Shown here: in pieces, positions 51,978 through 52,196 of the stretch | Layout: each line of letters begins with the position of its first letter | How positions within the stretch are numbered: the stretch's first letter is position 1 | Assembly: GCF_988243305.1 (NCBI RefSeq) | Contig: NZ_OZ547137.1 | DNA: 64,000 bases | Source: a plasmid | Reading direction: 5' to 3' (one strand) | Position numbers and translations under genes: made by a program | The notes under the pieces: generated by a model | What the model was told of the DNA's origin: nothing | Database searches by the model: none | Seen by the model: the letters and a program-made list of their open reading frames with translations, nothing else

Positions 51978-52196
51978 CTACAGTTTCTGACCGTCCTGAT
52001 TTCTGCTTATATAAGCCTCGCAAAACATTGCTCTATTCATGCACCACTCTATGTTCTCTATTTTCTTACAGAATAAAGAGGCCAGTTTCCAGAGCTCAAA
52101 AGCAAGAGCAAGATCCATATTCTTCTCTGCAGAAGCTGCTTGTTTCGACAAGGAATGAAAATTCTTTCCAGCCTTCATCAATACCTCCCAATACAA
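51978..52196 (-). CDS. Candidate small helical protein (72 aa), possibly an Aar/ANR-like regulator
   Basis: Low-GC ORF upstream of aap; assignment rests on size and context only, sequence not recognised. Confidence 0.2.
   Translation of the reverse strand: MYWEVLMKAGKNFHSLSKQAASAEKNMDLALAFELWKLASLFCKKIENIEWCMNRAMFCEAYISRNQDGQKL

Follow-up and report, generated by a model that had tools for sequence, protein, structure and literature searches.

In enteroaggregative Escherichia coli (EAEC), Aar acts as a brake on the AggR virulence regulon. Aar is the protein on which the ANR (AraC Negative Regulator) family was founded; members of this family are smaller than 10 kDa and about 39-80 amino acids (aa) long (PMC4038620), and a similar action of the ANR family has been described in enteropathogenic E. 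coli and Citrobacter (PMC10148876). The present analysis concerns a minus-strand open reading frame (ORF) in a 64,000-nucleotide stretch of a plasmid (NCBI RefSeq assembly GCF_988243305.1, contig NZ_OZ547137.1), hereafter referred to as the window. This ORF is almost certainly aar, the gene on the EAEC virulence plasmid pAA for the anti-activator Aar, a protein of 66 residues and three helices.

Deletion of aar increased the expression of aggR, aap, and aat and gave rise to hyperfimbriate cells, and over-expression of aar abolished aggR expression (PMC4038620). Aar binds to residues 69-181, the central region of AggR. It disrupts the dimerization of AggR and reduces its binding to DNA, and this requires helices 2 and 3 of Aar (PMC4983702). 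In addition, Aar binds to H-NS and modulates H-NS silencing (PMC5570504). In epidemiological terms, aar-negative strains were linked to more disease (PMC4038620). In strain 042, the aar mRNA collapsed in an aggR mutant (PMC4038620), and aar was included in the AggR regulon defined by RNA sequencing (PMC6392122).

Identification of aar in the window

The ORF list of the window contains a 72-codon minus-strand ORF which extends from TTG to TAG at positions 51978-52196 (translation MYWEVLMKAGKNFHSLSKQAASAEKNMDLALAFELWKLASLFCKKIENIEWCMNRAMFCEAYISRNQDGQKL). The GC content of the coding segment was 40.3%, compared with 48.2% for the whole window. A preliminary description of this DNA had suggested that the product of the ORF is small and helical and acts negatively on an AraC-family activator, in the manner of ANR proteins. 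The translated product matched NCBIfam NF033650 (ANR_neg_reg, "ANR family transcriptional regulator") with a score of 65.2 bits and an E value of 3.5e-18; the match covered the full length of the model (positions 1-54), and the score was well above the cut-off of 32 bits. Therefore, the minus-strand ORF is not a chance ORF, and the suggestion of an ANR-type regulator was borne out, the gene being that of Aar. No Pfam model matched the aar ORF; the ANR family is modeled only in NCBIfam.

A megablast search with positions 51700-52700 against 72,556 plasmids returned 34 records with at least 80% query coverage. The best 25 of the 34 records, which include 55989p, showed 99.7-100% identity, and all of them are annotated as "aar: AggR-activated transcriptional regulator Aar" under the match. 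The 1-kb region was 100% identical in the pAA plasmid pE1246_1 as well as in CP088797 and KY706108, and 99.9% identical in 55989p. The entire 421-bp segment was present in 54 of the 5,426 complete E. coli genomes. A word-indexed protein search gave five relatives only, and homologues were therefore gathered by tblastn on plasmids. The tblastn searches showed that the Aar protein is identical in 66 of 66 residues in 55989p and O104:H4 C227-11, and that it shares 62-71% identity with the products of "ANR family transcriptional regulator" genes on the plasmids of enterotoxigenic E. coli (ETEC).

The product translated from the ATG (66 aa, 7.6 kDa) falls within the size range of the ANR family, and an intact aggR is located 1.9 kb from aar. 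Thus, all of the sequence-testable features of the ANR family were found at this locus, namely the match to the hidden Markov model (HMM), the size, the helicity, the conserved residues, and the linkage to the gene of an AraC-family activator. The aar gene is already known, well studied, and routinely annotated, and the locus holds no new biology.

Promoter and AggR-binding sites

Two candidate AggR-dependent promoters have been listed upstream of aar of 042 by Yasir et al. (PMC6392122, Table 1 of that paper). The upstream region of aar in the window was compared with these candidates and with the AggR-site consensus, WWWWWWWTATC. A predicted -10 region, TGTTATAAATT, and a predicted proximal AggR-binding site, ATTATTCTATC, were found, and an alignment demonstrated that the proximal site is unchanged between the window and 042. 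The -10 region contains TAAATT and TATAAA, which follow the TATC of the AggR site at distances of 22 bp and 20 bp, respectively. A distal candidate AggR-binding site, ATAAAGGTATC, lies further upstream (Table 1). Based on the identity with 042, the transcription of aar in the window would be AggR dependent.

The motif WWWWWWWTATC occurs 36 times in the window, compared with 6.0 +/- 2.5 occurrences expected from shuffles, and all but four of the occurrences are in the virulence half (40700-60900). This excess may simply reflect local AT-richness, not functional sites.

Conserved residues and predicted fold of Aar

An alignment of 11 ANR sequences was constructed from EAEC, ETEC, and the ANR domain of Yersinia ruckeri. 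The residues F7, A26, W30, A33, N42, W45, C46, R49, A50, F52, and C53 were invariant in this alignment, and the near-invariant cysteine of helix 3 is present in the window Aar. Conserved ANR residues, including a highly conserved cysteine, have been described earlier (PMC4038620), and the window Aar is in line with that description. An AlphaFold2 model built from the same alignment consisted of three helices (residues 7-19, 23-35, and 40-65), with a mean predicted local distance difference test (pLDDT) value of 88.7 and a predicted template modeling (pTM) score of 0.75. The model agrees with the circular dichroism of Aar, which indicated an alpha-helical protein, and with the earlier three-helix prediction (PMC4983702).

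No relative with a solved structure was found when the PDB was searched by sequence, and a Foldseek search of the model against the PDB found no match below an E value of 0.1. The best Foldseek hits (E > 0.3) were generic three-helix MIT/TPR-like domains with 12-15% identity, which were taken as fold resemblance only. Alignment to ANR proteins, secondary-structure prediction, and transcript mapping had been put forward as checks in the preliminary description. The ANR match and the three predicted helices are both in its favor, the predicted aar promoter and AggR site of 042 are conserved upstream of the frame, and aar of 042 is known to be transcribed in an AggR-dependent manner (PMC4038620, PMC6392122).

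The Y. ruckeri member is not encoded by a free-standing gene of some 65 codons but has a different architecture. In pYR4 of Y. ruckeri (L011, 116-583), the ANR domain is located at the C-terminal end of a larger protein, whose 468-nt coding sequence (CDS) carries the annotation of an ANR family regulator.

Translation start and alternative readings of the locus

Judged from the sequence, aar starts from the ATG at 52178, and its product is the 66-aa form, not the form that starts from the TTG at 52196. This assignment was made because GGGAGG precedes the ATG, RefSeq gives the same start, an ATG at the equivalent position opens the ETEC homologues, and the extra N-terminal residues are not conserved. 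The RefSeq CDS WP_000643555.1 (aar) of the DNA-identical pE1246_1 corresponds to positions 51978-52178 of the window and to 66 aa, and the RefSeq CDS of the 042 allele also begins with the ATG. A product of 72 aa (8.4 kDa) initiated at the TTG is very unlikely. The frame is indeed open from the TTG, and two potential starts of aar, an ATG and an alternative codon, were recognized by Santiago et al., who cloned from the one further upstream (PMC4038620). However, the TTG has no Shine-Dalgarno (SD) sequence, the predicted -10 region would allow it a leader of only approximately 8-15 nt, and the first 11 residues of the 72-aa form lie outside the ANR HMM alignment. In 042-like alleles, moreover, the SD region differs by a 1-nt indel that shifts the upstream frame; the TTG and the ATG are then in different frames, and the six additional residues (MYWEVL) lack conservation. 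The ORF pointed out in the preliminary description is real and low in GC, whereas its TTG start gives way to the ATG.

The same description had noted that a plus-strand ORF overlaps the frame. The overlap is present, and the plus-strand ORF of 85 aa could be imagined as the real gene, or as a second gene, with aar as its shadow. It is longer than aar and is fully open in the window and in 042-like alleles, and a weak sigma-70-like match was found on the plus strand at 52222-52250, though downstream of the start of the ORF. In contrast, its translation had no NCBIfam match, and its sole Pfam match (LST1, 15.7 bits) was under the cut-off of 22.3 bits. The equivalent antisense frame contains one to three stops in four of the five ETEC ANR homologues, whereas the aar frame is intact. 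The only two substitutions between the window and 042 in the shared coding region are both synonymous in the aar frame, and in every annotation the gene is on the opposite strand. The probability that the plus-strand ORF is a gene is practically negligible, and this candidate was rejected as effectively refuted on the basis of the lack of any family above threshold and the stops in the ETEC homologues. The practical outcome is that the gene boundary is corrected to the ATG at 52178 and the antisense ORF is dismissed as a shadow ORF.

It was also considered whether aar is a decaying, no longer functional remnant in this plasmid. Both of its immediate neighbors are pseudogenes, and a terminator scan detected no terminator-like site downstream of aar. 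On the other hand, the aar ORF is unbroken, and its product is the same as that of the functional allele (63 of 63 residues compared with 042), and the SD sequence, the predicted -10 region, and the predicted AggR site are all conserved. Furthermore, the 54 complete E. coli genomes, among them those with outbreak-lineage pAA plasmids, retain the arrangement, and the functional aar of 042 likewise has an IS630-family pseudogene directly downstream. Decay of aar is thus extremely improbable, and the locus is best read as an intact aar. Four caveats apply to the identification of the ORF as aar. Even for 042, the promoter and the AggR site of aar were predicted by bioinformatics and are not marked as characterized (PMC6392122, Table 1 of that paper), and no promoter was detected on the minus strand by a generic sigma-70 scan. 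The latter result is uninformative and was to be expected, because an activator-dependent promoter without a -35 element is involved. To these are added the lack of a detected terminator, the result of the PDB sequence and Foldseek searches, in which no solved ANR structure for validating the model was found, and the three residues by which the window allele exceeds the tested 042 protein. Although these caveats remain, no evidence contradicts the assignment of the ORF to aar.

Proposed action of Aar in the window

Gene identity, gene boundaries, conservation of the promoter motifs, prediction of the helical fold, and linkage to aggR were established here, and the function is taken from the literature on 042. 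AggR, encoded 1.9 kb away, would activate aar from a promoter with the AggR site ATTATTCTATC 22 bp upstream of the -10 sequence, and Aar would be translated from the ATG at 52178 behind GGGAGG. Accumulating Aar would then bind to the central linker/dimerization region of AggR, so that AggR could neither dimerize nor bind to DNA. The expected result is a negative feedback loop on the entire AggR regulon, which comprises the aggregative adherence fimbriae (AAF), aap, aatPABCD, and aggR itself. In addition, Aar would bind to H-NS and modulate H-NS silencing. The binding of the window Aar to AggR and H-NS and the feedback repression are presumed from the identity of 63 of 63 residues with the tested 042 protein.

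Genetic context

The features of the locus are listed in Table 1. The whole circuit, consisting of aggR, aap, aatPABCD, and aar, is present within the window, and the recognition of aar completes the annotation of the pAA virulence island. The preliminary description had placed the ORF between a remnant of an IS630-family insertion sequence (IS) and an N-terminal remnant of a serine protease autotransporter of Enterobacteriaceae (SPATE), and this location agrees with the RefSeq pseudogenes of pE1246_1.

Table 1. Positions of aar, its predicted control elements, and neighboring features in the window
Feature	Position	Strand	Remarks
aar CDS	51978..52178	-	66 aa and TAG stop; 7.6 kDa, pI 8.9; AggR-activated regulator, ANR family
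Shine-Dalgarno sequence GGGAGG	52184..52189	-	5-nt spacer to ATG at 52178; read from sequence
Upstream in-frame TTG	52194..52196	-	start of 72-aa ORF; probably unused
Predicted -10 region TGTTATAAATT	52212..52222	-	identical to 042 aar candidate (PMC6392122 Table 1), confirmed by alignment
Predicted proximal AggR-binding site ATTATTCTATC	52240..52250	-	fits consensus with one mismatch in A/T tract; same as 042 candidate (PMC6392122 Table 1)
Distal candidate AggR-binding site ATAAAGGTATC	52382..52392	-	inside SPATE remnant; corresponds to second aar candidate of PMC6392122 Table 1
Shadow ORF, 85 codons	51968..52225	+	not a gene
IS630-family transposase pseudogene	50767..51795	-	downstream of aar; frameshifted, with internal stop (RefSeq, pE1246_1); ORF fragments seen
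S6-family (SPATE) peptidase N-terminal remnant	52284..52599	-	upstream of aar, same strand; frameshifted pseudogene (RefSeq, pE1246_1); ORF fragments seen
aap (dispersin)	52909..53259	+	AggR-regulon gene, divergent from aar
aggR, AraC/XylS-family activator	54100..54897	+	intact, 265 aa; annotated aggR in pE1246_1 and 55989p

A second frameshifted S6-family (SPATE) pseudogene fragment was found at about 48712-50450; together with the fragment at 52284-52599, it flanks the IS630 pseudogene and aar. The window was largely colinear with pE1246_1, with 97-99.9% identity over the aligned blocks. The identity fell to 97.3% in the tra region (1-6036), and similarity to pE1246_1 was absent at 6037-7096 and after 60625 (to 64000), where IS-like ORFs, one of 539 aa, were found. 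These differences indicate that the backbone is a mosaic and that the junction close to the fimbrial end is a different one. Two IS3 copies at 39570-40826 and 46800-48056 are 100% identical, have the same orientation, and bracket the dispersin-export operon aatPABCD. A separate 3-bp target-site duplication accompanies each copy (TAT and AAC), and pE1246_1 has neither copy; the two copies therefore look like recent independent insertions. Recombination between the two copies could delete the aat operon.

Comparison with known aar and ANR loci

The Aar protein of pAA2 of 042 (orf60, WP_000643554.1; RefSeq NC_017627.1) was identical to the window Aar in 63 of 63 aligned residues. The AggR site and the -10 region are the same in the two plasmids, and an IS630-family pseudogene lies just downstream of aar in both. 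The window Aar is three C-terminal residues (QKL) longer than that of 042, because the TAG of 042 is CAG in the window. In the SD region, a 1-nt indel distinguishes the window (GGGAGGT) from 042 (GGGGGG), and there is an additional 11-nt indel further upstream. No difference from the window was found in aar of 55989p and of the pAA plasmid of the Shiga-toxin-producing O104:H4 strain C227-11 (WP_000643555.1). The order aar, SPATE remnant, aap, and aggR in 55989p is the same as that in the window, whereas the window plasmid differs from 55989p and the C227-11 pAA outside aar, for example by the extra IS3 copies.

The 55989/O104:H4-type allele, with QKL and the stronger SD sequence (GGGAGG compared with GGGGGG), might differ quantitatively from the 042 allele in expression or action, and the distal AggR site in the SPATE remnant might add a second promoter. 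We consider such effects unlikely; if true, the set-point of the AggR feedback would be changed in outbreak-lineage pAA plasmids. The remaining openings for aar of the window are quantitative only, and consist of the QKL tail, the SD variant, and the candidate distal AggR site.

The ETEC ANR homologues located beside cfaD/rns-type AraC regulators (e.g., WP_001413878.1 and WP_001485221.1) belong to the same family, are 59-67 aa long, and have the conserved W, C, R, and F residues. In the alignment, they showed only 42-66% identity to the window Aar. They are likewise tightly linked to the gene of an AraC-family activator. In four of the five ETEC loci, however, the ANR gene is divergent from and directly beside the activator gene, whereas aap and IS fragments are present between aar and aggR in the window.
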